A DNA stretch of 63,260 nucleotides, counting the filler, from an uncultured Methanosarcinales archaeon (GTDB taxonomy: Archaea; Nanobdellota; Nanobdellia; Woesearchaeales; JACPBV01): the NCBI GenBank assembly GCA_964492935.1. It is 4 parts of 4 records of this genome, joined end to end, with 100 filler letters (N's around TTAATTAATTAA, not from the genome) between each part and the next. Parts side by side here need not be neighbours in the genome. Positions count along the whole stretch, not along the records: positions 21,088 to 41,050 come from CAZBLF010000021.1; 3 more parts are not named here. One strand, given 5' to 3'. The number at the start of each line of letters is the position of its first letter. Positions within the stretch are counted from its first letter, which is position 1. The notes beneath the pieces were generated by a model that was not told the origin of the DNA, did no database searches, and saw only the letters and a program-made list of their open reading frames with translations. This document shows positions 10,551 through 40,047 of this stretch, in pieces. The translations under genes were made by a program, and so were the position numbers.

Positions 10551-10551
10551 T

Positions 10552-23435: not shown

Positions 23436-23479
23436 AAAGCAAGAAAAGCAACTATGTCTTTATTAACCTTACTATCTAT

Positions 23480-23959
23480 TCACCGAATGTCAATAGTAAA
23501 ATCCTTGGGTCCAATACCGGCTAAATCAATAGAACATAACTCAACACCAGTCGGAGTAGAATCGGCTAACGTCACCAACAAATTAAACGTCCCCATCTCC
23601 GAAGGATCAATAGCTCGATCATTGGCGGTCTGTGTAATAGCATTTGCACCCGTCAACCCGGGACAAGTAATAGTCGGAGCCACCGCCGTCGCACCACTAT
23701 TAGTATTATACACATTAACCTTCAACACCAAGCTTTCGCCTGCTGATGTGATAATAGATTCTCGTGAAAGAGTAATAGGAAAAGCACCACTTGCCAAAGC
23801 AGCTTCTGGCTCACTACTAATCTGTTCATCAAATGAAGTAGAAACTTTAGTAAACATACCTCGAATAAAACCTAAACCAAGACCCAACATCACAATAGCG
23901 AGAATCAGCGTTACAATAGCAGTCACCGATAATTCCATAGCTGCTTTTTTCGACTTCAT
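23480..23959 (-). CDS. Type IV pilin-like protein (class III signal peptide)
   Basis: MKSKKAA|MELSVTAIVTLILAIVMLGLGL; the longer ORF-track start lies inside the MITE. Confidence 0.8.
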   Translation of the reverse strand: MKSKKAAMELSVTAIVTLILAIVMLGLGLGFIRGMFTKVSTSFDEQISSEPEAALASGAFPITLSRESIITSAGESLVLKVNVYNTNSGATAVAPTITCPGLTGANAITQTANDRAIDPSEMGTFNLLVTLADSTPTGVELCSIDLAGIGPKDFTIDIR

Positions 23960-24015
23960 TTGATTATGCACAAGTATATCCATGCAGAACCCATTAATAA
24001 ATCTATCTATTTTTG

Positions 24016-24149
24016 GTATGTGCATAGCACCTTCGAAATTCTTGCTCTTGACTTCTGAAGGTGCTGCGTCCCCGGATGGGGCAACCCCGCGCAACGCACT
24101 TAATTCTGAGGTATCAATGAATTTCGACCTGGTGATGCTATGCACATAC
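24016..24149. mobile_element. MITE family 1, copy 2 (8-bp TSD TATTTTTG)
   Basis: Matches copy 1; lies between divergent pilin and radB genes. Confidence 0.93.
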
Positions 24150-24193
24150 TATTTTTGCACTATCTTTATATCTCCAACCGCCCTACCCCACAC

Positions 24194-24904
24194 ATGACTC
24201 AGCGCAAGATTCCCACAGGAAGCAAAATTCTCGATCGCATGCTCCAGGGAGGCTACGAGTCTGATGTCATTACAACACTCTACGGACCTGCCGGATCTGG
24301 CAAGACCATTCTCTGCATGCTTGCAGCCGTAACGATGGCCCGCTCAGGAAAGAAAGTAATCTACATCGACACCGAAAACAACTTCTCTACAGAGCGCCTC
24401 AAACAAATAGCACCCTATGACTACAACAAAATCCTAAAACAAATAGCATTCCTCCGTCCCGTCACCTTCGACGAGCAAAAGGACATGTTCACCAAACTAA
24501 CCAAACTCATCAACAAAGGAATTGGCCTAGTCATCATCGATACTATCGCCATGCTCTATCGCATAGCTCTCGGAAATGAAACCAATCCGTTCGCAATCAA
24601 TAAAGCACTAGGAACCCAACTCGCATTAATTAACGAGATTACAAGAAAGAAAGACATCCCAGTACTCTTAGCAAATCACAGCTATGCCGACTTCGATGAC
24701 AAGACCAAGGTAGTCGCCCTAGGCGGAGAAATCCTAAGATACAGTAGCAAATGCCTGATCGAGCTCGCATCCACACCAGAAGGCAACCGCAAAGCCATCC
24801 TCAGAAAGCACCGCTCAATCGCAGAGGAAACAGAAATCACTTTCAAGATCGTTGAGGCCGGCGTCCTCGGAACAAAAGAATCCAAAGGCTTCAAATTATT
24901 CTAA
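24194..24904 (+). CDS. radB: DNA repair protein RadB
   Basis: IPTGS..LD.ML.GG.E, GPAGSGKT, IYIDTE, C-terminal LRKHRS basic patch. Confidence 0.93.
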   Translation: MTQRKIPTGSKILDRMLQGGYESDVITTLYGPAGSGKTILCMLAAVTMARSGKKVIYIDTENNFSTERLKQIAPYDYNKILKQIAFLRPVTFDEQKDMFTKLTKLINKGIGLVIIDTIAMLYRIALGNETNPFAINKALGTQLALINEITRKKDIPVLLANHSYADFDDKTKVVALGGEILRYSSKCLIELASTPEGNRKAILRKHRSIAEETEITFKIVEAGVLGTKESKGFKLF

Positions 24905-24978
24905 CTCGAGTCATTTACCCAACACCCCATTATAGCAATCTTTTTAAAGATCTCACAATTAATGAAACCTAATCAAAA

Positions 24979-26466
24979 ATGGCTAAAGGCAACAAAAAAT
25001 CAAGGTTAAGTGCATACGAACGGCTCGATATTCTTCTAGATAAAGACTCATTCACCGAACTCGATGAGCATGTTGTTCTTCAATCACACCAATTCAATCT
25101 CCAAGAGAAAAAGCAAGCTAAGGATGGTGTAGTTACCGGTTTCGGCACCATCCAAGGACGCAAAGTCTGCATCTATGCCCAAGACTTCTCCTTTATGGGC
25201 GGTTCCATGGGCGAAATGCACAACAAAAAGATTGCAAAGGTAATGGAATACTCATTAATGACGGGCATCCCCATCATAGGTTTATTAGATTCTGGCGGCG
25301 CCAGAATTCAAGAAGGAATCCAAGGCCTAGACGGTGGCGGACGCATCTTCAAACTCAACACTCTAGCATCCGGAGTTATCCCTCAAATTTCGGCAATCCT
25401 CGGCCCCTGTGCAGGAATAGCAGTCTATTCACCTGCCCTCACCGATTTCACCTTTATGGTTGAAGGCGTCAGCAACATGTTTATCACCGGACCTAACATC
25501 GTAAAAACCGTTACCGGCGAAGATATCAGTTTTGAAGATCTAGGGGGAGCACAAGTCCACGCAAAAAAATCAGGAGTAGCACATTTTACAGCAGCATCCG
25601 AAAAAGAATGCCTAGTGAGAATAAAAAAACTGCTAAGCTATCTTCCCTCAAACAACCTAGAAAATCCCCCATTCATTGATTATGAAGATTCCAAGAAAAG
25701 AAAAGCAAAACTCAAGAGCATTATCCCGAGCGATCCCAAAAAAAGCTATGACGTAAAAGAAGTCATCCAGGAAGTCATGGATAAAGATTCGTTTTGCGAG
25801 GTCATGGAAGACTTCGCCCAAAACGCAGTAACTGGTTTCGCAAGGCTTGACAATAAAGTAGTCGCAATCATAGCAAATCAACCGATGATCCTTGCAGGTT
25901 GCCTAGACATCAACAGCTCAGACAAGATAGCACGTTTCGTCAGATGCGCTGACGCCTTCAACATCCCAATCATTAATCTTGTTGACGTCACCGGCTATCT
26001 ACCCGGTACAGACCAGGAACATCAAGGCATCATCCGACACGGAGCAAAAATGCTGTATTCTTATGCAGAAGCCACCGTACCTAAAATCTCGTTAGTGATG
26101 CGTAAAGCATATGGGGGAGCCTATATCGCTCTAGCCTCAAAAGAAATGGCCTATGACTATGTTCTGAGCTGGCCCTCAGCCGAAATCGCAGTGATGGGGG
26201 CCGAGCAAGCAGTCAATCTTATTCACAGAAAGGAAATCGCAGCAGACAAAACCAATAAAAAGAGAAACGAGTACATTAAGCAGTACCAAAAGCAATTTCT
26301 AAATCCAGATGAGGCAGCACGTACCGGTAAGATCGACAAAATCATCGATCCCGAGGAAACGCGCATCCATCTTATCCGAGCAATCGAACTTCTTGAAGGT
26401 AAACGAGTAAAAGGAACCGGCCTCAAGGCATCAACCGCCAGAAAACACGGCAACATTCCGCTTTAA
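24979..26466 (+). CDS. Acyl-CoA carboxylase carboxyltransferase subunit (PccB/AccD-type)
   Basis: DGVVTG, QDFS..GGS.G, DSGGARIQEG, MFITGP, GIIRHGAK, RKAYGGA, KHGNIPL. Confidence 0.96.
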   Translation: MAKGNKKSRLSAYERLDILLDKDSFTELDEHVVLQSHQFNLQEKKQAKDGVVTGFGTIQGRKVCIYAQDFSFMGGSMGEMHNKKIAKVMEYSLMTGIPIIGLLDSGGARIQEGIQGLDGGGRIFKLNTLASGVIPQISAILGPCAGIAVYSPALTDFTFMVEGVSNMFITGPNIVKTVTGEDISFEDLGGAQVHAKKSGVAHFTAASEKECLVRIKKLLSYLPSNNLENPPFIDYEDSKKRKAKLKSIIPSDPKKSYDVKEVIQEVMDKDSFCEVMEDFAQNAVTGFARLDNKVVAIIANQPMILAGCLDINSSDKIARFVRCADAFNIPIINLVDVTGYLPGTDQEHQGIIRHGAKMLYSYAEATVPKISLVMRKAYGGAYIALASKEMAYDYVLSWPSAEIAVMGAEQAVNLIHRKEIAADKTNKKRNEYIKQYQKQFLNPDEAARTGKIDKIIDPEETRIHLIRAIELLEGKRVKGTGLKASTARKHGNIPL

Positions 26467-26467
26467 A

Positions 26468-26854
26468 ATGCGCGAGCTAAAGATAAAGATCGATGGCAAG
26501 GAACATCTCGTCAAGGTAGAAGAAGTTCGCCAAGGCAAAGTTCGCGTCCATCTCCAAGGAGAGGTCTTCGAAGTAGATACGCAGAGCAATCGAGGAAAGG
26601 AATTAGAGGATGCCATTTCTGAGAAAAAAGACGCAGGCGGAAGCTCACACATCAAAGCCCCACTTCCCGGAACCGTATTCTCCATTAACGTAAAACCTGG
26701 GCAAGCAGTCAAGAAAGGAGAGAAATTACTGAGCCTCATGGCCATGAAGATGGAAAATGAAATAACCGCGCCCAAGTCGGGAAAAATAAAATCAATAGAA
26801 GTAAAACAACATCAGACCGTCGACAAAGGAGAACTTCTCATCACGCTACAATAA
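26468..26854 (+). CDS. accB: Biotin carboxyl carrier protein
   Basis: APLPG and AMKMENEI biotinylation motif. Confidence 0.93.
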   Translation: MRELKIKIDGKEHLVKVEEVRQGKVRVHLQGEVFEVDTQSNRGKELEDAISEKKDAGGSSHIKAPLPGTVFSINVKPGQAVKKGEKLLSLMAMKMENEITAPKSGKIKSIEVKQHQTVDKGELLITLQ

Positions 26855-26998
26855 TCAGGAAGCCTGAACTTCATTCCACCTGAACTCACGTAACTTAATC
26901 CCCTTCTTTCGCAACGATATGCTAATGTGCTGATTAAGCCGCAACAAACTCTGCGTCTCAAGCAACTCGTGTAATTCCTCAAGTTCATCTATGCCCAT
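26855..26998 (-). CDS. Small hypothetical protein (47 aa)
   Basis: Manual translation MGIDELEELHELLETQSLLRLNQH...; ATG overlaps upstream TGA. Confidence 0.4.
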   Translation of the reverse strand: MGIDELEELHELLETQSLLRLNQHISISLRKKGIKLREFRWNEVQAS

Positions 26999-27237
26999 CA
27001 TCGTTTTCTTTCACCTGATGCTCTTCCAAATAAAATACCGGTCAACACATTCAACGCCCAAGCCTGAAATACATTAATCTGAAGCGAAGCAAAATTAACG
27101 AAAACATAATTCCACAACCACATTACGGGAAACGCTAACAATAAACCAACAATCGCAGAAAGAATAATAATGATAAACATCGTATATCCCAAATCCACCA
27201 AGCGTTTTAACATCGGCATTGAGTCGAGAAACGTCAT
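26998..27237 (-). CDS. Small membrane protein
   Basis: Two hydrophobic segments, P.MWLWN...I..QAW.L.L..ILF. Confidence 0.65.
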   Translation of the reverse strand: MTFLDSMPMLKRLVDLGYTMFIIIILSAIVGLLLAFPVMWLWNYVFVNFASLQINVFQAWALNVLTGILFGRASGERKR

Positions 27238-27286
27238 TTTCTAATGCTATGCCAACACCGCAGATATATAAATGTTCTCATTACTT

Positions 27287-27449
27287 GGGCTGAGTAGAAA
27301 GTCCTGGTCACCGGCATGAAGTCGAAATCCAATTAATCTTAAGAGCAGGCTGACAAAGGGGTTGTCCCTACGGGAAAAGTCAGCTTTCTATATTCAGAAG
27401 CAAGATTTCGAAGCTGGTGATCCTACGAAGTGAGACTTTCTACTGAGCC
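27287..27449. mobile_element. MITE family 2, copy A (TSD CATTACTT)
   Basis: TIR GGCT(G/C)AGTAGAAAGTC; direct repeat on both flanks; homologous to 56340-56502. Confidence 0.85.
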
Positions 27450-27478
27450 CATTACTTAATCATCTAACGAAAGAAGCC

Positions 27479-28144
27479 TTATCGACCATCAACAAGAGTC
27501 CCGTCCTGCATCACACGAGCACCCGAAGCAGTTTCCAAAATAAGATAGCCCTGCGACGTAATTCCCGTAACTTTGCCCGAATGCCGCTCGCCAGCATCCT
27601 CGACAGTAATCTCATTACCTAAGGTAACGCAATGCCTGCTGTACTCCTCAATCAACTGCTCAGCATCAACATCAGAAAATCTTTTTTCAAAGGCTGCACA
27701 TAACGCATCGACCACCGCACCGTTATCCACACTCCCAAGGCTAGCAGCAGACAATGCATCAGAAACAATATTATGAGTATTAATCCCAATTCCAATAACA
27801 TACAGTACCTCCGCTCCCTGCACCGATTCAATCAAGATTCCCCCGACCTTCTTACCCTCAATCAGAATATCATTCGGCCACTTAATACTCGCCTCAGCCC
27901 CAAACGAAGCAACCACATCACGAACCGCCAACGCACTCACAATAGGCAGCAACGATGCACTAAATGGCAACACCCCATACGTCAGCGAAACATACACGCC
28001 ACCCAACGCACTTTCCCACACCCTATCAAATCTACCTCTCCCAGCAACCTGCTCATTAGCAACAATACACAATCCCGCCTCCGCCAAACGCTTTGCCTCA
28101 GTATTCGTAGAATCTAAAGAATCATAGTTGATGCGTCTAAACAT
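27479..28144 (-). CDS. birA: Biotin--protein ligase
   Basis: LDSTN, Q.AGRGR..R.W.S, IKWPND, KKVGGILIE, GIGIN. Confidence 0.95.
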   Translation of the reverse strand: MFRRINYDSLDSTNTEAKRLAEAGLCIVANEQVAGRGRFDRVWESALGGVYVSLTYGVLPFSASLLPIVSALAVRDVVASFGAEASIKWPNDILIEGKKVGGILIESVQGAEVLYVIGIGINTHNIVSDALSAASLGSVDNGAVVDALCAAFEKRFSDVDAEQLIEEYSRHCVTLGNEITVEDAGERHSGKVTGITSQGYLILETASGARVMQDGTLVDGR

Positions 28145-30008
28145 CTTCTCCCATCTGCTCTCGTCTAGAAGCAAGTTCCCAAGTCCTATTACGTTGTAAC
28201 GGCTTCTCCTCAAGATACGAACTTACAGCAGTACTCACAATAATCAGCTTCTCCTCTTTCGACAATGTCTTCCGAGCAGAACGCGGAGCACGCAACCGTT
28301 TAAGGATACTATATTTATCCAGAAAGTGTGTCGTAACCTCTCCCTTCGCAAACGAACGATTACTCAACACAGCAAGGTGCAACGGAATCGTCGTTTCAAC
28401 ACCCTCGATAATATACTCAGATAATGCCCGCTGCATACGAGACAATGCCTCCTCGCGCGTTTTACCTTTACACATCAATTTAGCTATTAATGAATCATAA
28501 TGCGGACTCACCACATGTCCAGAATGACAGCTCGAACACACTCGAATACCAGGACCACCCGGCGGCAAATAATTAACAATAGTTCCCGTCTGCGGTGCAA
28601 AATCATCAAACGGAGACTCTGCATTAATTCTACACTCAATCGCCCAACCATCAAAAACAATATCCCTCTGCTTAAATGCCATCGTAGCACCCGCCGCAAT
28701 CTTAATCTGTTCCTTGATTAAATCAATACCTGTAATCATCTCCGTAATCCCATGCTCCACCTGGATACGAGTATTCATCTCCATGAAGTAAAATGCCCCA
28801 TCCTTATCAATAAGAAATTCAACCGTACCAGCACCCTCATATTTCACGGCCTTACAAATAGAAACAGCAGCCCGTCCAACTTTCTCGCGTAACACCTCAT
28901 CCACAGAGGGACTCGGAGTCTCCTCAATCAACTTCTGATGCTTACGCTGAATGCTACAATCTCTCTCGCCCAAATGCACAACATGGCCAGAGTGATCAGC
29001 AATAATCTGCACCTCAATATGTTTTGGATCCTCAACATATTTCTCTATGTACAATTCATTATTTCCAAATGATGCCTCAGCCTCGCCTCGCGCACTTGCA
29101 AACGCAGCCAAAAAGTCAGCCTCCTTACGAACAACACGCATACCCTTTCCGCCACCGCCAGAAACCGCCTTTACAATGACTGGAAACCCAATCGATTTCG
29201 CAGCAACAACACCAGCTGACGCATCCGTAAGCGCGGCAGTTCCTGCAACAACCGGAATACCTAATTTGATGCACTGCTTTCTCGCCTCATCCTTATTCCC
29301 CATCAATGCAATTGATTTTGAAGAAGGACCAATAAATTTAATCTTATTTTTTTCGCAGAGTCTTGCAAAATCCACACTTTCCGATAAAAATCCATATCCG
29401 GGGTGAATAGCATCCGCCTTAACGCGTTTAGCCAACGCCACAATCTTTTCATAGCGCAAATAGTCATCAGCATTATTGCCGATAAGATACGACTTATCCG
29501 CAAACTTAACTGCAAGCGCCTGAGCATCAGGTTTAGTATAAATGGCAACCGTTTCAATATCCAATTCACGACAGGCTCGAATGACTCGCAATGCTATTTC
29601 TCCACGGTTCGCAATCAACACTCTTTTGAACAATCTCTTTCGAGGAATTTGGGTATACTCCTTCGGATCAATAAAATTACCTAATCTATTCGTAATCATA
29701 TTCAGAAAGGACTTCTTAGACGTATCTCGAATCACAGCCTGCACCTGCTCTGCATCAGTATGGGGAAGTTTCGCAGCGACCTGCTCAGCAATAACATTAC
29801 TAAATCCATTCAAATCAGGAGTGTGCAACAAATCCCTATCCTTCTCCAACATGATCAATTGAGATTTAACCACCTGTTCAATCTCCTCGTACAAAGCAGG
29901 AATACTCTCTTTGGTCTTTTTTGCCATCCCTCGAGCAAGATCATAACCCATCTCTACCGGCTCCAACATCTTGTTCACGAGCTGAGCAATCTTCTTCTTC
30001 ATTCCCAT
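28137..30008 (-). CDS. accC: Biotin carboxylase with long N-terminal extension and epsilon-subunit-like C-terminal tail
   Basis: LIANRGEIA, HPGYGFLSE, GGGGKGMR, ERDCSIQR, EMNTRIQVEH, YDSLIAKL. Confidence 0.95.
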   Translation of the reverse strand: MGMKKKIAQLVNKMLEPVEMGYDLARGMAKKTKESIPALYEEIEQVVKSQLIMLEKDRDLLHTPDLNGFSNVIAEQVAAKLPHTDAEQVQAVIRDTSKKSFLNMITNRLGNFIDPKEYTQIPRKRLFKRVLIANRGEIALRVIRACRELDIETVAIYTKPDAQALAVKFADKSYLIGNNADDYLRYEKIVALAKRVKADAIHPGYGFLSESVDFARLCEKNKIKFIGPSSKSIALMGNKDEARKQCIKLGIPVVAGTAALTDASAGVVAAKSIGFPVIVKAVSGGGGKGMRVVRKEADFLAAFASARGEAEASFGNNELYIEKYVEDPKHIEVQIIADHSGHVVHLGERDCSIQRKHQKLIEETPSPSVDEVLREKVGRAAVSICKAVKYEGAGTVEFLIDKDGAFYFMEMNTRIQVEHGITEMITGIDLIKEQIKIAAGATMAFKQRDIVFDGWAIECRINAESPFDDFAPQTGTIVNYLPPGGPGIRVCSSCHSGHVVSPHYDSLIAKLMCKGKTREEALSRMQRALSEYIIEGVETTIPLHLAVLSNRSFAKGEVTTHFLDKYSILKRLRAPRSARKTLSKEEKLIIVSTAVSSYLEEKPLQRNRTWELASRREQMGEDV

Positions 30009-30131
30009 AATTCTAGTTAGTCATTCTACCTTTAAAAACCTTAGTATATGCTCCCGAGCACTCCAAACCAAAGATATTTAAAGCGTTTGCCGCTTCTTGA
30101 AGGGGTAAACAAACCGATTACGAGAACAAAA

Positions 30132-30620
30132 ATGAGCAAAATTGACGACTACAAAGACGCAAAAGGAGAAATCAGCAAAGAGGATATTGTAAAAATCATT
30201 CCCTATAATGATCACTTTCTCTTTATCGATAAAGTTACTACACTTGAAAAAGATCTCATCATAGCAGAAAAGAAATTGACTGGTGAGGAGGATTTCTTCA
30301 AAGGACATTTCGCAGAATTTCCCATCATGCCAGGAGCACTCATCATAGAAGGTATGGGCCAAGCCGGGACACTGCTCGTACGCTATAATCTTGACGATCA
30401 CGAAACAAAAGACGTTCTTGCCTATAAAATCAACGAAACCAAGTTCTCAGCTCCTACCTTCCCGCCCGCAACCCTCACGTTTGAATTGAGATTATTGGGA
30501 AAAGATGATAAGGGCGCATTACTCACCGGAACCGCAAAAGTAGACGGAAAACAAGTTGCAGAAACGCGCATCATGCTAGCCGTAGTCGATAAAAAAGAAT
30601 TCAGAAATAAATCACAATGA
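30132..30620 (+). CDS. fabZ: 3-hydroxyacyl dehydratase, FabZ/FabA hot-dog family
   Basis: IIP...FLFID and FFKGHF...PIMPG.LIIE..GQ with catalytic His/Glu. Confidence 0.9.
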   Translation: MSKIDDYKDAKGEISKEDIVKIIPYNDHFLFIDKVTTLEKDLIIAEKKLTGEEDFFKGHFAEFPIMPGALIIEGMGQAGTLLVRYNLDDHETKDVLAYKINETKFSAPTFPPATLTFELRLLGKDDKGALLTGTAKVDGKQVAETRIMLAVVDKKEFRNKSQ

Positions 30621-31753
30621 ACAAGCCGCGTTTCGTTAAGGGAGTAGGGATGACTCGCTTTAGCGCAGAGGATATTCCCACTCAAGAACTCACACAAGAG
30701 GTAATCGAAGAGGCCCTCAAGGATGCATCCATGTCTCCAGAAGAGATAGATGCAGTCGTAGTTTCCACAGTGGACACAAAAATAAACCCTGAGCGCCAAA
30801 GACTCTATCCCCCCATTGTAGCATCTCTTCTTCAGCGAAAAATCCCCATGATCCGAGTCCCCGCAGTATGTGGCGGAGGCGGAGCAGCATTCTGGACAGC
30901 ACTACGTCTACAATACAACAACATCCTGGTCCTTGCTGTAGACAGAATCCTCTCCTCAAGCACCTCAAGAATAACCCATGAGATTATGGGCGCTGCAGAA
31001 AACCTGTGGGAGCAAGAAGAAGGCCTAATTTTCCCAGCACAAAACGCAATCGTAGCACAACTCCACATGAACAAGTACAACACTCCTAAAGAAGCACTTC
31101 ATCGTATCGCTCTAAAAAATCACGAAAATGGATACCTTAATCCAAAAGCAAGATTCTATGGAAAAAAAATCACGATGGAGGATATAGAAAAGTCTCCCAT
31201 TGTCTCATCCCCTTTCAATCTCTATGATTGCTCAATCTCTGTCAACGGGGGTGCAGCAATAATTATCAGCCACGACAAAACCGACATCGAGGTGCGAGGA
31301 TCAGGTATGGCAACAGATAACATTGCCCCCTTTGAGCGAGAGGACATGACCACCTGGCAAGGTACCGTGTTAGCAGGCAAGCAAGCTTTTGAGCAAGCAA
31401 ACATCAAGCCAGAGGACATCAAAGTAGCCGAACTCCACGACGCATTTAGCATTGTAGAGCTTATAGCGTATGAAGATCTTGGATTTTGCAAGAAAGGAGA
31501 GGGATCAAAATTCATCCTAGAGGGACATTCCACCCTTTCAGGTAAACTACCTGTCAACCCGTCAGGTGGACTCAAAGCACGAGGACACCCCATCTCACCT
31601 ACGGGTGCAGCCCAGGTAGTAGAAATCGTCAATCAACTTCGCGGTAAATGCGATAAAAGACAGGTAAAGAACCCCACATGGGGATTAACACACAACATCG
31701 GAGGCGCAGGTGGAACAACCACAGTACATATCTTCCACAAAGCAGAAACATAA
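30617..31753 (+). CDS. Thiolase family protein (archaeal/SCP2-type)
   Basis: PAVCGGG catalytic Cys, ELHDAF, NPSGGLKARGHP, HNIGG. Confidence 0.92.
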   Translation: MNKPRFVKGVGMTRFSAEDIPTQELTQEVIEEALKDASMSPEEIDAVVVSTVDTKINPERQRLYPPIVASLLQRKIPMIRVPAVCGGGGAAFWTALRLQYNNILVLAVDRILSSSTSRITHEIMGAAENLWEQEEGLIFPAQNAIVAQLHMNKYNTPKEALHRIALKNHENGYLNPKARFYGKKITMEDIEKSPIVSSPFNLYDCSISVNGGAAIIISHDKTDIEVRGSGMATDNIAPFEREDMTTWQGTVLAGKQAFEQANIKPEDIKVAELHDAFSIVELIAYEDLGFCKKGEGSKFILEGHSTLSGKLPVNPSGGLKARGHPISPTGAAQVVEIVNQLRGKCDKRQVKNPTWGLTHNIGGAGGTTTVHIFHKAET

Positions 31754-32883
31754 TGGTAAGAATTATACGTTGGATTGGAGAAAAATCAGGAAAAAAGTGG
31801 ATTTATCCCGTAGAGGAAGATATCTACACCCACGAGAAAATTAAGAAGATAGTCAGCAATAAAGCAAAAGTAGTAGGATTCACAAAAGTCAGCATCCCCT
31901 CCCCGTTACATCCCATCATCCCCTATAATGTACTCATCTTAGAGGATGAGCACGGGCACAAAATGCCCAAGAAAGTCATGAAGGACTATAAAATAGGAGA
32001 TACCTACGAAGATGCATCCTCGGACAAAGACAATGCCTTCGCAATTGTAAAACTAAAATACGATTACGACGAGGCAGTAGATGAGGTGTTCGAATTAATA
32101 GGTGGAATCGACATAACTCCCAAACAAAAAATCCTCATTAAACCCAATCTCAGCGTTCCAGGAAACGCCTATCTCGGCACCTGCACCAATGACAAGACAA
32201 TAGATGCACTACTCACATACCTAATCAACAAAGGAGCAAAACCAGCCAATATCACGATAGCCGAACAATCGTTCTTCCTGCCCTTTGAAAAAACAATAGC
32301 AAAAACAGGAATTCTTGAAGTCGTAAAGAAACACAACGTCAAACTGGTAAATATCGCCGACACCAAGTTCGAAGAAAAGCAAGAGCGCGAGTTTACACTA
32401 AACATTTCAAGAATAGTCGATGAGCATGACGTACTCATTAACGTTCCCGTAATAAAAACAGACATGGTGCTCGGGATGGATGGATCTTTCGAGAATCTCA
32501 CTCGCTTTCTAAACAAGGAGTCCTATGAACAACTAGCGAAAGACCCCCAGAAAGCAGTTATGGCACTAGCAGTTCTTCCCAAGCTCCTCCCCTCATTCAT
32601 TACCCTTGGAGACGCCTCCATCGGGATGCAAGGAAATGGGCCTGCGCAGCACGGAGAACCGGGTTTCTACAATATGTTTTTTGCAGCTCGCAATCCAGTG
32701 GTACATGATCGTGTCGCATCCGAAATACTATGCCTTTCAAAATTACCCTATGCCGAACTCGCAGGAAAACTAGGAATAGGCGAATTTGACCTAACTAACA
32801 TTGACATACTAGGAAATGAGCTGGATGCAGTGAAGCGAGACGTTCTCAAACCAACCGGTTCAAGACTCTTCAAAAAGGACTAA
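31753..32883 (+). CDS. Fusion of a Cys-less DUF35 (OB-fold) domain and a DUF362 domain
   Basis: N-terminal G..YP...KVVGFT.V..P..H....Y...I.E..G; C-terminal ILIKPNL, IAE, LINVPVIKT, G.GP. Confidence 0.7.
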   Translation: MVRIIRWIGEKSGKKWIYPVEEDIYTHEKIKKIVSNKAKVVGFTKVSIPSPLHPIIPYNVLILEDEHGHKMPKKVMKDYKIGDTYEDASSDKDNAFAIVKLKYDYDEAVDEVFELIGGIDITPKQKILIKPNLSVPGNAYLGTCTNDKTIDALLTYLINKGAKPANITIAEQSFFLPFEKTIAKTGILEVVKKHNVKLVNIADTKFEEKQEREFTLNISRIVDEHDVLINVPVIKTDMVLGMDGSFENLTRFLNKESYEQLAKDPQKAVMALAVLPKLLPSFITLGDASIGMQGNGPAQHGEPGFYNMFFAARNPVVHDRVASEILCLSKLPYAELAGKLGIGEFDLTNIDILGNELDAVKRDVLKPTGSRLFKKD

Positions 32884-32884
32884 G

Positions 32885-34012
32885 ATGTACATAAAAGGAG
32901 TAGGTATGACAAAGTACGGCATTCTACGAGAGGCAACCCCCTTACTAGCCTACCAAGCATCACTCCAGGCATTGAAAGATGCAGACATGACTATGGGCGA
33001 CATCGATGCAATCGTCTGTTCCTCCATAGAATGGTTTTTTTCAGATGAACGACAACGCCATTTCTCTTCAGTTTTAAGTTCAGTATTCAATACCCGAGTA
33101 CCCATCATCAGAACCCCTACCGCATGTTCCTCCGGAGGAGCAGCCTTCTGGACAGCACAACAGCTAGGGTTCGATAATGTACTAGTAGTGGGATCAGACA
33201 AATTAATGACCTGTAAAACAGAGCGCGTCACCGACGAATTCATGATGGCTGCAGAATCAACGTACGAACAAAACGAGGGTCTCAATTTTCCTGCACAGAA
33301 CGCACTCGTCGCTCAAGAATATATGAAGAAATATCCTGATACGAACATGGATCACCTCGCAATGATAGCTCATAAAAATCACCAGAATGCTAAAGACAAT
33401 CCTCATGCCAGATTCTTCGGTAAGGAGGTAGATTTAGACACCATAAAAAAATCTCCGGTGGTAGCATCGCCACTCAGATTATTCGATTGCTCCATCTCAG
33501 CCGATGGCGCAGCGGCATGTGTTCTAACGAAAGACAAATCCGACATCAAGATCGCAGGATCAGATCTCTGTTCAGATTTTCTAGGAACCTTTGAGCGAGG
33601 CGATAACACCTCCTGGGACGCCTCCACCATTACTGCAAAGAACGTGTATGAGCAGGCAGGAATCACCGCAAAGGATATCGATATTGCCGAACTCCATGAT
33701 GCATTCACCATTGTAGAGCTCATCGCCTATGAAGATCTCGGATTCGCGAAACCGGGACAAGCCTACAAAATGATCGAGGACGGATATTTCACCAAAGAAG
33801 GAAAACTCCCCGTTAATCTTTCGGGAGGTCTCAAGGCAAAAGGTCACCCGGTAGCTGCAACCGGCCTTGGACAAATTTATGAACTCGTCCAGCAACTTAG
33901 AAACAAAGCAGGCGATCGCCAGGCAAAAAATCCTAAAATAGCATATGCACAGAATATTGGCGGAGCAGGCGCAAATATCACTGGCCACATTCTCAAAAAA
34001 GTTTCAACGTGA
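32885..34012 (+). CDS. Thiolase family protein (archaeal/SCP2-type), paralog 2
   Basis: PTACSSGG, ELHDAF, NLSGGLKAKGHP, QNIGG. Confidence 0.92.
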   Translation: MYIKGVGMTKYGILREATPLLAYQASLQALKDADMTMGDIDAIVCSSIEWFFSDERQRHFSSVLSSVFNTRVPIIRTPTACSSGGAAFWTAQQLGFDNVLVVGSDKLMTCKTERVTDEFMMAAESTYEQNEGLNFPAQNALVAQEYMKKYPDTNMDHLAMIAHKNHQNAKDNPHARFFGKEVDLDTIKKSPVVASPLRLFDCSISADGAAACVLTKDKSDIKIAGSDLCSDFLGTFERGDNTSWDASTITAKNVYEQAGITAKDIDIAELHDAFTIVELIAYEDLGFAKPGQAYKMIEDGYFTKEGKLPVNLSGGLKAKGHPVAATGLGQIYELVQQLRNKAGDRQAKNPKIAYAQNIGGAGANITGHILKKVST

Positions 34013-34020
34013 GGTATACC

Positions 34021-34752
34021 ATGAAAAAAACAGCACTCATTACAGGATCAACACGCGGCATCGGCAAGGCCATAGCAGAAAAACTTGCAGATGAGGGCAT
34101 GAACATAATTCTTCACGATTCAGGGCGCAACAAGGACGCAGCCAAACAACTAATAAAAGAAATTTCTGCTAAGAAAGTACAGTGTATCTACGTGCCAGCC
34201 GACATCACCAACCTCAAAGACTGCAAAGAAATGGTAGGGGAAATTCAAAAGACTTTCAGCCAAGTCGACGTACTGGTAAACAACGCAGGCATCACGCGCG
34301 ATAAAACACTAAAGAAAATGGAACCACAAGACTGGGAGGACGTCATCAACACCAATCTCAATTCCCTCTATTATGTTACAAATAACATATTATCGCTTAT
34401 ACCAGAACAAGGGAGAATCATCAATATCTCCTCCATCGTAGCCCAAACCGGAAACTTCGGGCAAACAAATTATGCAGCCGCAAAGGCAGGAATGATCGGC
34501 TTCACAAAATCACTAGCAAAAGAGCTCGGCAAGAGCAAAATAACCGTAAATGCAGTTGCTCCAGGCTTCATCAAAACCGAAATGACTGATCAGATACCAT
34601 TAGAATTACTTTCCAAGGTACTAGAACTCATCCCCCTAAGAGAGATGGGAAACCCTGAGGACGTTGCAGCCACCGTAGCATTCCTATCTTCTGAGCACGC
34701 ATCCTATATCACCGGATCCGTAGTCAATGTAGATGGGGGCCTAGGATTCTGA
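34021..34752 (+). CDS. fabG: 3-oxoacyl reductase (FabG/PhaB-like SDR)
   Basis: TGSTRGIG, NNAGITRD, GN.GQTNYAAAK, VAPGFI.T.MT, VDGG. Confidence 0.92.
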   Translation: MKKTALITGSTRGIGKAIAEKLADEGMNIILHDSGRNKDAAKQLIKEISAKKVQCIYVPADITNLKDCKEMVGEIQKTFSQVDVLVNNAGITRDKTLKKMEPQDWEDVINTNLNSLYYVTNNILSLIPEQGRIINISSIVAQTGNFGQTNYAAAKAGMIGFTKSLAKELGKSKITVNAVAPGFIKTEMTDQIPLELLSKVLELIPLREMGNPEDVAATVAFLSSEHASYITGSVVNVDGGLGF

Positions 34753-34843
34753 GATAACGTGAAGTAAATCCTTCTATCAGGCCTGAATATCATTAGCACG
34801 CTCTTCGAAAGATTTATAACCGTTTCTGGCACTTTATGCTATC

Positions 34844-35482
34844 ATGGTATATCCCATAGCAAGGCGCGTGTTACCCTTACTCTTTAAGCTCTGGCTGCGC
34901 GACGTAAAAGGCCTCAACAACCTCCCTGCCGGCCCGTTCATAGCATGCATGAATCATTCCAGTTTCATAGATGACCTACTCATACCACTCATAATTGTTC
35001 CAGAAGTAAATAGAAACATGTGCATGTACGTGAATAGAAAATTTTTCAACAATGCAATAGTAAGAACATTTCTCAACTGGGGAAATTCCATCCCTGTCGA
35101 AGTCTACAAAGCACCCGATAAGAAGCAGGTTAACGAAAAGGCATTCAACAATGCTCTAACCCACCTTAAAAAAGGAGAAATCATAGGAATCTATCCAGAG
35201 GGCCATCGAAGTAAGGATGGCAAACTCCAACGAGCGAGAAATGGTGCAGCAAAGCTAGCCCTAACTGCAAACGTACCTATTGTACCCATCGCCATCACCG
35301 GTTCACGAGAAGTTCTACCGAAAGGCGTTGCACTACCCAAACTCAAGAAGTGTATAACTGTGACCATTGGCGCCCCCCTCACTTTAAAAGAAGCATCCCT
35401 CAGCCAACAAGCACTCACCAACTCCACAAGAAAGATCATGAAATCGATTGCAGCCCTTCTCGGGCAGGAGTACAACTTCTAA
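34844..35482 (+). CDS. plsC: Lysophospholipid (1-acyl-G3P) acyltransferase
   Basis: NHSSFID (HX4D), IYPEGHRS, GAA.LA...VPIVP. Confidence 0.9.
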   Translation: MVYPIARRVLPLLFKLWLRDVKGLNNLPAGPFIACMNHSSFIDDLLIPLIIVPEVNRNMCMYVNRKFFNNAIVRTFLNWGNSIPVEVYKAPDKKQVNEKAFNNALTHLKKGEIIGIYPEGHRSKDGKLQRARNGAAKLALTANVPIVPIAITGSREVLPKGVALPKLKKCITVTIGAPLTLKEASLSQQALTNSTRKIMKSIAALLGQEYNF

Positions 35483-35652
35483 TGAGAAAAAGCAGGGCCA
35501 ATACAAGAGGCACCGTTGAAATATTGCCCAAAGTGAAGAAAATACCAAAGTTAAAAAAGGCAGACTTATTTAATAGGAATATCCAAGAACAATCACCTTG
35601 AGGCAGATATCACCAAGGAAAAATATCCATTCGATAGCGAGCTGATGAAGAA

Positions 35653-36633
35653 ATGAAAATAACCATTATGGGCGCAGGATCCTGGGGAACCACTCTAGCA
35701 CATATACTAGCACAACGCGGCCACACCATCTCTCTATGGGCACGCGAACAAAAGACAGCCGACGAAATTAACAACCATCACACCAACAACACCTATCTCA
35801 AAAAAGTAAAGCTAGAGTCTAAAATAATGGCGACACATCAGCTAGCAGATGCACTTAAAGCAGCCGAGCTCGCAATTATTGTAATACCGTCTCCCTATGT
35901 GCGCGACATCACCCAAAAGATGAGCAAGCACATACCAAATACACTCAAATTCATCATCTCGGCGTCCAAAGGACTCGAACCCAGCACCGGCAAGCGCATG
36001 TCCGAAGTCATCGAGGAGGAAATAAAAAACGTACCAGTAGCAGTACTTACCGGTCCCAACCATGCAGAGGAAGTCATCAATAATATTCCTACTGCAACCG
36101 TTCTCGCTTCAGAAAACAAAGCAGTTCGTGAAACCCTGCAAAAAGAGCTGAGTACTCCGCACTTCAAAGTCTATCCTATCGAGGACATCATCGGCGCAGA
36201 GTACTGTGGAGCCCTCAAAAATGTATGTGCGATAGCGGTAGGGGTGTCTAAAGGCCTCCATCTCGGAGATAATGCCACAGGCTCGATCATCACCCTAGGT
36301 CTCGCCGAAATGGCACGCGTAGGGGCCGCTTTCGGAGCAAAAAGAGAAACCTATTACGGGCTCGCAGGAGTAGGAGATCTCGTAGCCACCTGTACCTCAT
36401 CCCACTCAAGAAATCTCTATCTAGGAGAACAGCTTGCTAAGAAGAAAACCTTCGAAGAAATCACCAAGGAAATGAAAGGAATGGTCGCTGAAGGAGCAAA
36501 TACTGCGCGCGTCCTTAACAATCTCGCAAAAAAGCAAAACATCAACCTACCCCTTACAAAACAGGTCTATGAAGTAATCTACAAAGAAAAAGAGGTAGAG
36601 AAAGCAGTAAAAGATCTGCTTACCGTACTCTAG
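35653..36633 (+). CDS. gpsA: NAD(P)H-dependent glycerol-3-phosphate dehydrogenase
   Basis: GAGSWGT, SKGLE, GPNHA, GALKNV, GLAGVGDLVATCTS.HSRN, AEG. Confidence 0.97.
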   Translation: MKITIMGAGSWGTTLAHILAQRGHTISLWAREQKTADEINNHHTNNTYLKKVKLESKIMATHQLADALKAAELAIIVIPSPYVRDITQKMSKHIPNTLKFIISASKGLEPSTGKRMSEVIEEEIKNVPVAVLTGPNHAEEVINNIPTATVLASENKAVRETLQKELSTPHFKVYPIEDIIGAEYCGALKNVCAIAVGVSKGLHLGDNATGSIITLGLAEMARVGAAFGAKRETYYGLAGVGDLVATCTSSHSRNLYLGEQLAKKKTFEEITKEMKGMVAEGANTARVLNNLAKKQNINLPLTKQVYEVIYKEKEVEKAVKDLLTVL

Positions 36634-37236
36634 CTATTCGTCCGTAAAGTCTTCTGCAGTCGCCTTAAACTCAGCATCCGTTTTAATCTTGCCCGTCGCC
36701 TTCAAATACTCTCGAGCCATGATGAAGAATAACAATCCAAGACTTTTTCTTCCCTTGTTATTGCAAGGAATCACCAAATCAATATTATTCGACTGGTTGT
36801 TTGTATCACATAATGCAACCACCGGAACTCCAACCTGATTTGCATCAAGAATAGCGTTTCGGTCTGGCCAAGCATCAGTAACCATAACCACCTTAGATTC
36901 TCTATAAATTTCCAATGCGGGGTTTGTCAACATTCCCGGAGGATATCGACCAGCAACCACATTAATGCCAGTAGTTTCATTTAACTTGCGCAACGGCTTC
37001 CATCCATTTTCTCGTCTACTGATAATTAAGATATCGTCAGGAGCAAATTGCGATAAAAATTGAACAGCAACCTTAATCCGCTCGTCAATACGCTGTAAAT
37101 TAAGCACACTCAATCCATCAGGTCGCGTCTTGTAAATAAAACGCTCCATGTATCGAGTTTTAAATTTAGTTCCAATATGAATACCGGATTTTAAATACAT
37201 ATCACTAGGTACAAGTAATTCTTTTTCGTTCGCCAT
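36634..37236 (-). CDS. rps2: 30S ribosomal protein S2 (archaeal type)
   Basis: YL.SGIHIGT, R.DGL.VL, GRY.PG.LTNP, IPCNNKG. Confidence 0.96.
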   Translation of the reverse strand: MANEKELLVPSDMYLKSGIHIGTKFKTRYMERFIYKTRPDGLSVLNLQRIDERIKVAVQFLSQFAPDDILIISRRENGWKPLRKLNETTGINVVAGRYPPGMLTNPALEIYRESKVVMVTDAWPDRNAILDANQVGVPVVALCDTNNQSNNIDLVIPCNNKGRKSLGLLFFIMAREYLKATGKIKTDAEFKATAEDFTDE

Positions 37237-37397
37237 CGTAATTCCTCCATGTGCATTTTTATCGCCTCAGCACACTATGTTCCCGCGAAGCTTGCAAGAA
37301 CCTTTGGCATTACTCTATAGAAAGCGCACTTCGTTTATAAATATATGGCATTTTCAAATTTTTTAGATTTAAGGCAGGGCAACAACATGTTGGTCCG

Positions 37398-37889
37398 CTA
37401 TAGTTTTCTACGCATTTCCAAGCAGTAAGTTTCAAATCCCCACTTCAGGTATGCTTTGTAAGCGTTGGGATTCGCTGGAGATACATTAAGAGAAGCGTGT
37501 TTAATTCCCTTGGATGCAAACCATGAAAATATACGAGTTTTAAATCTGGAACCGATCCGCTGCCTACGATAGTTCTTCTTGACAAAAAGGTCGCTGACAT
37601 GACCAAGTTTAGCTAGCTTATATACAATAATATTTTTTTTGATATAAGATAAGCTATATCCGACCAATCTTCCATGTTCTTCAGCAACCAGGACTAATCC
37701 ATTTCTATCCCTAATAGTCTCTACAGCAAATTTTTTGAAAAGGCTAGGTCCATGAGAATTGAGTTCATCGTATCTAGAAAGTTTCATATCCGTTTTAGCA
37801 ATAATCTTGCGGGTATCAAGCATGAATTCTTTCCACAGCTCAACGATCTCAGGTACATCTACAATCTTTGCCGTCCTAATGGTGACCAT
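37398..37889 (-). CDS. GNAT family N-acetyltransferase
   Basis: LFV...YRRQRIG, LNV...N..A...Y..WGF. Confidence 0.88.
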   Translation of the reverse strand: MVTIRTAKIVDVPEIVELWKEFMLDTRKIIAKTDMKLSRYDELNSHGPSLFKKFAVETIRDRNGLVLVAEEHGRLVGYSLSYIKKNIIVYKLAKLGHVSDLFVKKNYRRQRIGSRFKTRIFSWFASKGIKHASLNVSPANPNAYKAYLKWGFETYCLEMRRKL

Positions 37890-37982
37890 ACTAACAATTA
37901 GAATTCCAACTTTATAAGCTTGCCGTCAATAATTAGGCTAGTCAACCATACTAAAATAAACATGTTCAAAACAGAATTGACC

Positions 37983-39645: not shown

Positions 39646-39726
39646 ATGTAAGCCAATTATTGAAAAAGAAGTTTAAAAAAGTATTGTTTTTAAGATAATA
39701 TGTGAGAAAAAGAGGACAGCCTACAG

Positions 39727-40047
39727 CTAATCCTCTTCCTCACCAAAATCCTCAGAATCCTCGATCTCTTCGACCGGTTCAGGAGCGACTTCTGGGCTTT
39801 TACTCTGCCCTTCTTGCGGTGCAGCCTTTCCTACAACCTCGGCAAAGCCTACTTTCTGCAAGACACGAGTAATCTTAACCTTAACCGTTTCGCCTGCCTG
39901 TGTATTAGGCACAAACAGCACAAATCCATCCTTTTTAGCTAATCCGTCGCCCTTCTCGCCGACAGCCTCGATAGTAACATCAATTTCATCTCCCACTTTT
40001 ACGGGGGCAGCAAATCCACTTCCACTGGGTCTGTATTCATCATCCAT
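39727..40047 (-). CDS. Single TRAM-domain RNA-binding protein
   Basis: PVKVGD...V.IE.VG.KGDG.AK..GFV.FVP....GE.V.VKI. Confidence 0.92.
   Translation of the reverse strand: MDDEYRPSGSGFAAPVKVGDEIDVTIEAVGEKGDGLAKKDGFVLFVPNTQAGETVKVKITRVLQKVGFAEVVGKAAPQEGQSKSPEVAPEPVEEIEDSEDFGEEED

Follow-up and report, generated by a model that had tools for sequence, protein, structure and literature searches.

We analysed a 63,260-nt stretch of archaeal DNA (hereafter the window) composed of four joined parts, and describe here a gene cluster in the part derived from CAZBLF010000021.1 (positions 21,088-41,050) that combines predicted genes for fatty-acid synthesis and glycerolipid assembly. Employing Pfam and NCBIfam scans of open reading frames (ORFs), we identified, between genes for a RadB-like recombinase and ribosomal protein S2, a carboxyltransferase and a biotin carboxyl carrier protein (BCCP); on the opposite strand, a biotin-protein ligase (BirA) and a biotin carboxylase; then a run of five genes for a FabZ-type dehydratase, a ketothiolase (KT1), a DUF35-like/DUF362 fusion protein, a second ketothiolase (KT2) and a FabG-type reductase; and, downstream of these, a PlsC-family acyltransferase and GpsA (Table 1). 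An earlier note on this DNA had read the cluster as a hybrid coenzyme A (CoA)-based fatty-acid synthase feeding lipid assembly. Every gene that it named was found in place, but its list overlooked a conserved ORF of 79 amino acids (aa) and an extension of about 125 aa on biotin carboxylase. At the right-hand edge, which it had given as rps2/radA, rpS2 indeed abuts gpsA, whereas radA lies well beyond it.

The junctions from fabZ to fabG overlap or abut (ATGA, TAATG, a 1-nt spacer and GTGA), and to judge from this arrangement the five genes are translationally coupled. Spacers of 91 nt and 170 nt separate fabG from plsC and plsC from gpsA, respectively. The A+T boxes between the biotin carboxylase gene and fabZ are possible archaeal promoters. 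The likely start of fabZ was placed by alignment with 14 orthologues; the predicted start of birA is likely near 28144, overlapping the end and stop codon of the biotin carboxylase gene, and the true start of radB is probably downstream of a 134-bp repeat ending at 24149. None of the ORFs scanned in the window had a Pfam match to ACP (acyl carrier protein) or ketosynthase families, and the cluster in the window contains no HMG-CoA synthase. Rfam gave nothing at gathering score across 22000-40000. The rest of the window is archaeal in its Pfam content (eRF1, histone, aIF5A, aIF5B, RadA, HerA-Mre11 and Trm1).

Table 1. Features of the cluster and of its surroundings in the window
Feature	Position	Strand	Evidence and remarks
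RadB-like recombinase	24140-24904	+	PF08423, 93 bits; left flank
Acyl-CoA carboxylase carboxyltransferase (12S/PccB-MmdA type)	24979-26466	+	PF01039, 583.6 bits; TIGR01117, 686.9 bits, below cut-off 998.8
BCCP	26468-26854	+	PF00364; AMKM biotinylation motif at residue 92
79-aa ORF, hydrophobic stretches read as two membrane helices	26998-27237	-	Between BCCP and BirA; no Pfam match
BirA (biotin-protein ligase)	27479-28213	-	TIGR00121, 145.9 bits (cut-off 83.1); no repressor domain
Biotin carboxylase	28137-30008	-	PF02786, PF00289, PF02785; TIGR00514, 632.3 bits (cut-off 626.5)
Divergent intergenic region, biotin carboxylase/FabZ operon	30009-30131	.	123 bp; two TTTAAA-type A+T boxes
FabZ-type (R)-3-hydroxyacyl dehydratase	30132-30620 (longest ORF from 30048)	+	PF07977, 75.4 bits
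Ketothiolase 1 (KT1; archaeal/SCP2-type thiolase)	30617-31753	+	PF22691, 162.5 bits
DUF35-like + DUF362 (LarA-fold) fusion	31753-32883	+	PF04015, 90.4 bits
Ketothiolase 2 (KT2), paralogue of KT1	32885-34012	+	PF22691, 144.1 bits
FabG-type 3-ketoacyl reductase (SDR)	34009-34752 (alternative ATG 34021)	+	TIGR01830, 302.6 bits (cut-off 297.75)
PlsC-family acyltransferase	34844-35482	+	PF01553, 83.5 bits; HX4D (HSSFID) at residue 38
GpsA, NAD(P)H-dependent sn-glycerol-3-phosphate dehydrogenase	35653-36633	+	NF000942, 393.3 bits (cut-off 257); PF07479, PF01210; GxGxxG motif
Ribosomal protein S2	36634-37236	-	Convergent; abuts GpsA
RadA	40298-41047		3.7 kb beyond S2; ends at N run 41051-41150
PgsA-type CDP-alcohol phosphatidyltransferase	55787-56296	-	TIGR00560, 152.6 bits (bacterial equivalog cut-off 109.1); PF01066; 19 kb off along the window, in another joined part

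The fusion protein belongs to a family of 212 protein clusters (E ≤1e-5), named throughout in the source as 'DUF362 domain-containing protein', 'uncharacterized protein (DUF362 family)' or 'hypothetical protein'. All the organisms named are Woesearchaeota or Nanoarchaeota, save for one partial record. The family N-terminus reads RWxCxKC...CxYC, followed by a short beta-rich segment, and the four cysteines are kept in 29 of 32 aligned rows. In the same alignment, all four of these zinc-ribbon cysteines are lost in the window protein and in a relative 87% identical to it, and three in one other member; the OB part of the cysteine-less proteins stays conserved. Residues 1-30 of the window protein (31753-31850) are identical in an independent sequencing run. 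In the first 116 residues of the window protein and of three relatives, no DUF35 domain was detected by Pfam even at E up to 10, and there were only weak zinc-finger hints in the relatives. We based the DUF35 assignment on the family alignment and on the fold. The AlphaFold model (pLDDT 91.9, pTM 0.91) superposes at residues 3-100 on the DUF35 subunits BbsA (7pxp), ChsH2 (6ok1), PhlB (5m3k), MucB (9vbt) and 6esq_E with Z scores of 6.5-7.1, rmsd of 2.5-3.3 Å over about 86 residues and a Foldseek probability of 1.00. The DUF35/DUF362 call of the earlier note thus stands by fold and family alignment, though with no Pfam DUF35 match and with a window copy deprived of the zinc-ribbon cysteines. The model points to a DUF35-type thiolase partner, and we propose that the protein would serve as a thiolase-docking adaptor.

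Residues 100-364 of the model superpose on the N-domain of LarA-family racemases (Z 17-18.8, rmsd 2.7 Å, about 211 residues), in keeping with the common Pfam clan, CL0471, to which the available part of PMC11770544 assigns DUF362 and the LarA N-domain. Unlike LarA, the fusion has the N-domain fold only, with no LarA C-domain and no invariant His; across 32 sequences, neither a His nor a Cys is invariant in the DUF362 domain. LarC, an enzyme for the nickel-pincer cofactor, was found in just one of five relatives, which argues against such a cofactor for DUF362. Many other DUF362 clusters in the protein atlas, which have no assigned function, carry 4Fe-4S domains; the fusion family has the DUF35 module instead.

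Several arrangements in relatives tie the fusion to FabG. In locus L012, a single 727-aa frame (9995-12178, + strand) consists of the fusion, an extension of about 110 aa and FabG, with both DUF362 and short-chain dehydrogenase/reductase (SDR) matches, and in L009, L011 and L015 fabG begins 1-2 nt past the stop codon of the fusion gene. A second group of relatives has fusions of 480-496 aa with the same C-terminal extension as L012, for which there is no family match. Longer fused forms were not found at E ≤1e-10, but the same search missed the L012 frame and is weak evidence. By analogy, the L012 frame may echo the recruitment of the reductase by DUF35 in Sulfolobus: in the available part of bioRxiv 10.1101/2024.07.05.601840, the ketothiolase/DUF35 (KT/DUF35) complex of S. 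acidocaldarius binds an SDR reductase and a dehydratase, and fatty acids are made on CoA by the reconstituted system.

KT1 and KT2 have 7yvy, 4yzo and 6esq among their closest solved structures (6esq_A at E 5e-52 and 8e-51, respectively). The nucleophilic cysteine, Cys85 in KT1 and Cys81 in KT2, does not vary among the aligned orthologues (15 of 15 and 14 of 14, respectively). All 26 thiolases of the clusters carry the motif HDAF. In SCP2-type thiolases, according to the accessible text of PMC12329534, the corresponding motif is HDCF, and its cysteine is one of a catalytic pair. Replacement of this residue would be compatible with a carbanion formed by decarboxylation; however, this is a lead rather than a demonstration, because another cysteine (FDCS) is invariant and the solved HDAF thiolase 7yvy was deposited as an acetyl-CoA acetyltransferase. 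In the thiolase tree, KT1 and KT2 form separate clades inside each of two species groups but not across species, which suggests that each group early on underwent either a duplication of its own or gene conversion.

The dehydratase is of the FabZ/FabA type (PF07977) rather than the MaoC type, and its catalytic His/Glu motifs (GHF...PIMPG...IEG) align to solved FabZ structures. FabG possesses both the cofactor motif TGxxxGIG and YxxxK. Judged by these family assignments, FabG and FabZ belong with the (R)-specific enzymes of biosynthesis and take the place of Hbd and crotonase.

Biotin carboxylase of the cluster begins with a conserved extension (residues 1-125), aligned across 13 loci, that has no Pfam match and contains an invariant Ser within a KSF(L) motif. 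It is predicted to be helical, but with pLDDT of 34-48 the model offers no usable fold; its profile, compared with PDB sequences, gave only a weak match to OxsA (E 2e-4, 24.7 bits) and no ACP. The 79-aa ORF is 57-63% identical to ORFs in the same place in L002 and L003; this putative membrane protein might anchor the carboxylase or the synthase at the membrane.

Using the fusion protein to search species-representative genomes, we obtained 16 loci from Woesearchaeota/Nanoarchaeota. Six of the records bear the name Woesearchaeota in their titles and five Nanoarchaeota or Nanoarchaeia. The remaining five (L002, L005, L012, L015 and L016), titled 'uncultured Methanosarcinales', show a Woesearchaeal cluster in the same synteny, and their titles are probably wrong, an artefact of automated-submission labelling. 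In the closest relative (locus L001 of genome G001), the fusion is 87% identical. The earlier note had proposed a survey of synteny and a search for G1PDH and GGGPS. As determined with tblastn, the cluster order recurs in the 16 loci, its common form being radB-carboxyltransferase-BCCP ... BirA-biotin carboxylase, divergent FabZ-KT-fusion-KT-FabG, then rpS2 / GpsA-PlsC-PlsC. FabZ-KT-fusion was found in 14 loci, the remaining two ending at a contig edge; the divergent biotin carboxylase is present in 12 of the 16, and radB adjoins the carboxyltransferase in L002, L003, L004 and L007.

Relatives carry additional genes within the cluster: a 4HBT thioesterase; three subunits of a 2-oxoacid:ferredoxin oxidoreductase; an acyl-CoA dehydrogenase (ACAD) with the electron-transfer flavoprotein subunits EtfB and EtfA; a family III CoA-transferase; and a methyltransferase. 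ACAD was found in 9 of 17 cluster-bearing genomes, always on the contig of gpsA; EtfB/EtfA adjoin it in L002, L012 and G139, and EtfA of L012 has a ferredoxin domain. In G139 a single operon reads FabZ-KT-fusion-KT-FabG-ACAD-EtfB-EtfA-PlsC-PlsC-GpsA. Relative to G139, the window cluster is a minimal version, without ACAD/Etf, thioesterase, oxidoreductase or second PlsC.

The association of the module with carboxylase and GpsA was then quantified in 151 genomes of the order, all of them drafts, with sizes of 0.6-2.1 Mb. A full-length fusion is present in 15 of these (14 without G136, which is flagged as unpublished). GpsA occurs in 43 genomes, namely all 15 with the fusion and 28 of the 136 others (Fisher p = 8e-10), and lies on the contig of the fusion in 11 of the 15. 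Biotin carboxylase was found in 21 of the 151 genomes and in 17 of 17 cluster-bearing genomes; its long form (an open frame of 599-667 aa) is restricted to exactly the 15 fusion genomes plus one of the 136 others, G148 (Fisher p = 9e-20). Both p values overstate independence, because the sampled genomes are related. In none of the 15 fusion genomes did we see the lipid genes lost and the module retained.

PlsC of the window is 71% identical to PlsC-a and 39% identical to PlsC-b of G001 (tblastn), and is therefore the orthologue of the first of two tandem PF01553 paralogues. Short CTP_transf_1 ORFs occur in 16 of 17 relatives; two of them were checked, and with 151.4 and 149.7 bits both pass the CarS (NF003114) cut-off of 148. 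PgsA of the window would be a possible head-group step of the same pathway. Another gene of the window (46006-46998, + strand) encodes a PLD-family protein that contains PLDc_2 twice. Its best family matches are to the nuclease NucT and to PLD proteins of defence systems, not to cardiolipin synthase, and a role in lipid synthesis is therefore improbable. Two fatty-acid desaturase genes (PF00487) directly follow fabG in G001 (L001, 4786-6515). Desaturases were found in 3 of 17 genomes, within the cluster in two (L001 and G020:C11:114966-115607), and all three of these genomes lack ACAD. The desaturases may be taken as a sign of acyl lipids with long chains.

The absence of a bacterial-type carrier and ketosynthase, asserted for the cluster by the earlier note together with that of FabD, PlsX and PlsY, holds in the relatives. 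Ketoacyl-ACP synthase (KAS, PF00109) was found in none of the 17 cluster-bearing genomes, whereas the control was positive in 14 of 14 known genomes. No AcpP was found in the 17: thirteen have no PP-binding match at all, and the matches in the other four were rejected, two lying in large multidomain ORFs and two in small ORFs beside FkbH genes, below all ACP cut-offs. FabD (PF00698) gave nothing over cut-off in five of five relatives (one partial match, 24 bits), and PlsX and PlsY were each absent from all five. In G020 and G002, a gene for an FkbH-domain phosphatase is followed by a small ACP-like ORF (L023, 11-1238; L024, 16-1183). This pair is of the glyceryl-carrier type, unrelated to the bacterial type II fatty-acid synthase (FAS II); its distance from the cluster in G020 is about 10 kb.

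Neither of the enzymes that mark archaeal lipids was found in relatives. GGGPS (PF01884) had no full-length match in any of the 151 genomes; 24 gave partial matches (at most 107 of 226 positions and 29.5 bits). Fe-ADH_2 matches were rejected as G1PDH: those checked were AroB (three) and alcohol dehydrogenase (one), with 38-71 bits against the G1PDH model (cut-off 413).

The integrity of the cluster was assessed with independent sequencing runs. All runs of N in the window (20988-21087, 41051-41150, 59096-59195 and 60598-60697) lie outside the cluster; three consist of paired 44-N stretches around 12 bases, and one of 100 N, a pattern that would suggest masking and not gaps in a scaffold. A 9.9-kb core of the cluster was present (at least half of the sampled words) in 17 listed sequencing-run rows, and the listed runs with the core stem from marine, seawater, aquatic and hydrothermal-vent metagenomes sequenced in 18 studies. 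In four runs of other studies, none of them flagged as a possible source, contigs tiled 22000-40000 at ≥99% identity and bridged every junction: radB-carboxyltransferase (runs X7 and X10, 24121 to at least 25376), carboxyltransferase-BCCP (X7, 25714-26683), BCCP-BirA-biotin carboxylase (X7, 26665-28421), biotin carboxylase-FabZ (X8, 29472-30185), FabZ to KT2 (X7, 29973-34019), KT2-FabG-PlsC (X8, 33807-35101), PlsC-GpsA (X7, 34405-36638) and GpsA-S2 (X10, 35899-37341). The gene-free gaps on either side of plsC are therefore real in this population. The reading frames of the window fusion gene are intact and identical in other samples. An apparent contig joint from 29353 to 37626 (runs X8 and X9) was dismissed as a chance or repeat match, having 21 letters on one side.

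Local variation was observed at the borders. A 134-bp element occurs in the window in three copies with 100% identity (20781-20914, 24016-24149 and 48460-48593), with terminal inverted repeats of at least 14 bp and an apparent direct duplication of 8-9 bp flanking each copy. It has no Rfam family match and looks like a recently active miniature inverted-repeat transposable element. The copy at 24016-24149 forms the left edge of the cluster, just upstream of radB, and in other runs the depth at this site is about three times as high, with loose ends that lead into different contexts. On the right, a variant contig of run X10 lacks 638 bp at 37342-37979, where the window has a GNAT acetyltransferase gene (37398-37889), and has four other letters instead.

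Taken together, the cluster probably encodes a Woesearchaeal ACP-independent fatty-acid synthase that works on CoA thioesters and is joined to bacterial-type glycerol-3-phosphate (G3P) glycerolipid assembly. The activities, the complex, the direction of flux, the chain length and the role of malonyl-CoA in this scheme are all inferred from gene content. KT1 and KT2 would dock on the DUF35-like N-domain of the fusion and condense acyl-CoA with a C2 unit; the resulting 3-ketoacyl-CoA would be reduced by FabG, and the (R)-3-hydroxyacyl-CoA dehydrated by FabZ. An enoyl-CoA reductase would close the cycle, a role that ACAD and EtfAB could play in about half of the related clusters. The divergent acyl-CoA carboxylase with its own BirA may provide malonyl-CoA or support condensation in another way. 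GpsA would supply sn-glycerol-3-phosphate, onto which PlsC-family acyltransferases would load acyl-CoA, and head groups might be added through the CarS homologue (in relatives) and PgsA (in the window). Synthesis is preferred over degradation or fermentation because the carboxylase is obligatory and has a BirA of its own, FabG and FabZ are (R)-specific, PlsC-PlsC-GpsA is operonic and two genomes have desaturases within the cluster.

Among the alternatives, salvage or remodelling deserves some weight, although we consider it unlikely: fatty acids or lipids of a host would be taken up, the module would elongate or modify acyl-CoA, and GpsA, PlsC, CarS and PgsA would rebuild phospholipids without de novo synthesis. 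Such a life fits the small genomes and the desaturases beside fabG in G001, which act on existing acyl chains, and it would accommodate the failure to find an enoyl reductase in the window or in G001. The literature likewise assumes that Woesearchaeia are unable to make lipid building blocks (PMC11868695, in its available part). Yet carboxylase and BirA go strictly with the module (15 of 15 genomes versus 1 of 136), and 9 of 17 relatives have ACAD/EtfAB to complete the cycle. The AMP-binding enzymes of five relatives comprise one of about 660 aa in each, by our reading the size of acetyl-CoA synthetase, and a second of 504 aa only in G003, so that no clear fatty-acid activating enzyme was seen in these five. 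Fermentative chain elongation by reverse beta-oxidation, with butyryl- or medium-chain acyl-CoA as electron sink, acids freed by thioesterase or CoA-transferase and lipid genes as mere neighbours, appears to us somewhat less likely again. It draws on the ACAD-EtfB-EtfA set in the clusters of relatives (with the ferredoxin domain in L012), on the 2-oxoacid:ferredoxin oxidoreductase subunits, 4HBT thioesterase and family III CoA-transferase found there, and on the general prediction that DPANN archaea are fermenters (PMC8204110, as far as available). What it leaves unaccounted for is an ATP-consuming carboxylase with a dedicated BirA that is always present, FabG/FabZ of the biosynthetic type rather than Hbd/crotonase, GpsA in 15 of 15 genomes and PlsC-PlsC-GpsA within the same operon in G139, desaturases inside two clusters, and a window that has neither ACAD/Etf nor thioesterase nor oxidoreductase.

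Beta-oxidation of host or environmental lipids is improbable. Thiolases and ACAD/Etf are classic enzymes of that pathway, but the cluster genes scanned include no (S)-specific hydroxyacyl-CoA dehydrogenase, crotonase or FadD-type ligase, ACAD is missing in 8 of 17 genomes, and linkage to carboxylase, BirA, GpsA and PlsC points to synthesis. That the cluster arose by misassembly, or by contamination of an archaeal bin with bacterial DNA, has in our judgement a negligible probability. FabG, FabZ, GpsA, PlsC and PgsA do match bacterial-type family models, and the G+C content of the cluster (0.446) is slightly higher than that of the rest of the window (0.421); against this, contigs of four runs from other studies bridge all junctions, the radB-carboxyltransferase and GpsA-S2 borders included, the radB-to-rpS2 gene order recurs in distant relatives, and no N run falls within the cluster. 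In arguing against contamination, the earlier note was right.

A number of observations weigh against a carrier-free synthase feeding lipid assembly, the reading that we favour. One concerns enoyl reduction. By Pfam and tblastn, no enoyl reductase was found in the window, and G001, a 1.1-Mb draft, has no ACAD, no medium-chain dehydrogenase/reductase (MDR) and no credible FabK; NMO/FabK matches were rejected as weak (at most 25 bits) and partial. MDR-family matches over cut-off are present in two of five ACAD-less relatives. Overall, nothing recognisable was found for this step in the window, G001 or six other genomes; because no enoyl reductase was seen in the window or in G001, the genes in view do not make up a complete elongation cycle. 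Searching the 63-kb window with tblastn, we likewise found no ACAD, Etf, thioesterase, 2-oxoacid oxidoreductase, CarS, desaturase or second PlsC. With no PlsX/PlsY, the two tandem PlsC paralogues of relatives would have to do both acylations, and the window has only one. The CDP-activating enzyme of relatives is a CarS homologue and not CdsA. UbiA prenyltransferases exceed the cut-off in 9 of 17 relatives, so that isoprenoid lipids may also be made. ACAD/Etf, the oxidoreductase, the thioesterase and the CoA-transferase of relatives also fit fermentative chain elongation, as set out above. The loss of the zinc-ribbon cysteines in the window fusion could be decay. Genome-wide absences, moreover, rest on draft metagenome genomes of relatives.

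The carboxylase is a further difficulty. Thiolase-type enzymes are non-decarboxylative as a rule and normally condense acetyl-CoA. Malonyl-CoA use was disproved for one Sulfolobus ketothiolase (bioRxiv 10.1101/2024.07.05.601840, in the part available). For these two reasons, the strict carboxylase link is unexplained by established mechanism. For the hybrid synthase described in the earlier note, the strict co-occurrence of module, carboxylase and GpsA speaks in favour, and the lack of an enoyl reductase in view and the single PlsC against.

A bolder version goes further: a DPANN archaeon would make its own bacterial-type ester-lipid membrane from acetyl-CoA with a fatty-acid synthase of a kind not known before, the HDAF thiolases, which lack the acid/base cysteine of HDCF, would condense decarboxylatively with carboxylase-derived malonyl-CoA, and DUF362 would be catalytic, a candidate enoyl-CoA reductase where ACAD/Etf is missing, as in the lineage of the window. 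We regard this combination as doubtful. If true, it would represent a third solution to chain elongation, beside ACP/KAS and the non-decarboxylative Sulfolobus system, and an archaeon alive today would stand on the bacterial side of the lipid divide.

The favoured synthase can be compared with several known systems. ACP-independent archaeal fatty-acid synthesis of the KT/DUF35 kind was proposed from genomics in 2012 (PMC3533463, available in part). The S. acidocaldarius synthase consists of the ketothiolase Saci_1121 with DUF35 protein Saci_1120, SDR reductase Saci_1104, MaoC dehydratase Saci_1085 and enoyl-CoA reductase Saci_1115; the ether-lipid cells of Sulfolobus contain fatty acids as a minor component, and it was considered unlikely that malonyl-CoA is used there (bioRxiv 10.1101/2024.07.05.601840, same part). 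The Woesearchaeal system resembles it in the presumed use of CoA thioesters instead of ACP, in the thiolase with a DUF35 adaptor and in the FabG-like SDR; the tie between adaptor and reductase, seen there by co-elution, is suggested here by the fused frame of L012 and the abutting genes of three loci. It differs in having two thiolase paralogues that flank the adaptor, an adaptor fused to a LarA-fold DUF362 domain, a dehydratase of the FabZ rather than the MaoC type, and strict linkage to acyl-CoA carboxylase, GpsA and PlsC; no MDR-type NADPH enoyl-CoA reductase lies in the cluster, where 9 of 17 relatives have ACAD/EtfAB instead and the window has no recognisable enzyme. The thiolase/HMG-CoA synthase/DUF35 complex of Methanothermococcus thermolithotrophicus (6esq, 6et9) is similar in that the thiolases match 6esq_A and the N-domain of the fusion matches 6esq_E (Z 6.5, 24% identity). 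Unlike that complex, the window cluster is without HMG-CoA synthase, its thiolases have HDAF where 6esq has HDCF, and its DUF35 part lacks the zinc-ribbon cysteines.

With bacterial type II FAS, the cluster shares FabG and FabZ that match bacterial models and an adjoining biotin carboxylase/BCCP/carboxyltransferase set; unlike it, relatives have no detectable AcpP-type carrier, KAS or FabD, thiolases would carry out condensation, and the carboxyltransferase is a single-chain 12S protein rather than AccA/AccD. The likeness to the bacterial G3P phospholipid pathway lies in GpsA and PgsA, which score above bacterial equivalog/subfamily cut-offs, and in a PlsC with HX4D; the differences are the lack of PlsX/PlsY in five relatives, the CarS homologue in place of CdsA in relatives, and an operon shared by lipid genes and the fatty-acid module. 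The clostridial butyryl-CoA pathway consists of thiolase, Hbd, crotonase and Bcd-EtfAB. Nine of 17 relatives resemble it in holding thiolase and ACAD-EtfB-EtfA in one cluster, but FabG/FabZ replace Hbd/crotonase, carboxylase and lipid genes are linked, and the window has no ACAD/Etf.

Parts of this picture have been published. Partial copies of the bacterial G3P lipid pathway are known from Marine Group II/III, Lokiarchaeota and some DPANN (PMC6431249 and PMC8204110, both available in part); Coleman et al. (PMC6431249, same portion) reported GpsA in Woesearchaeota and PlsC in DPANN, and Zhang et al. reported FabG, FabI and FabZ in marine DPANN genomes. We found no literature on Woesearchaeota with acetyl-CoA carboxylase, and none of the DUF362 literature found concerns fatty acids. 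The novelty of the reading in the earlier note is thus limited: CoA-based KT/DUF35 synthesis is known from Sulfolobus, and GpsA, PlsC, FabG and FabZ had been published in DPANN, so that the concept and several single genes are not new. The integrated architecture (two thiolases, DUF35-DUF362 adaptor, long carboxylase, PlsC/GpsA and no ACP/KAS) was not found in the literature, though Supplementary Table 4 of PMC8204110 may list parts of it.

Woesearchaeota, like other DPANN archaea, are commonly regarded as lacking lipid synthesis and as obtaining their lipids from hosts, and a 2025 study still assumed that Woesearchaeia cannot make lipid building blocks (PMC11868695, available part). The clade described here keeps a compact, conserved set of genes that extends from CO2 fixation onto acyl-CoA, by way of chain building, to acylation of G3P, and the cluster poses a sharp, testable question, namely what job a carboxylase has in thiolase-based condensation. 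If functional, the system would provide the first metabolic context for DUF362, and oceanic ester-bound fatty acids would not be assignable to bacteria alone. It would also mean that archaea can have bacterial-type membranes by way of a largely archaeal-type, carrier-free synthase, which would bear on the lipid divide, the membrane switch and the origins of eukaryotes.

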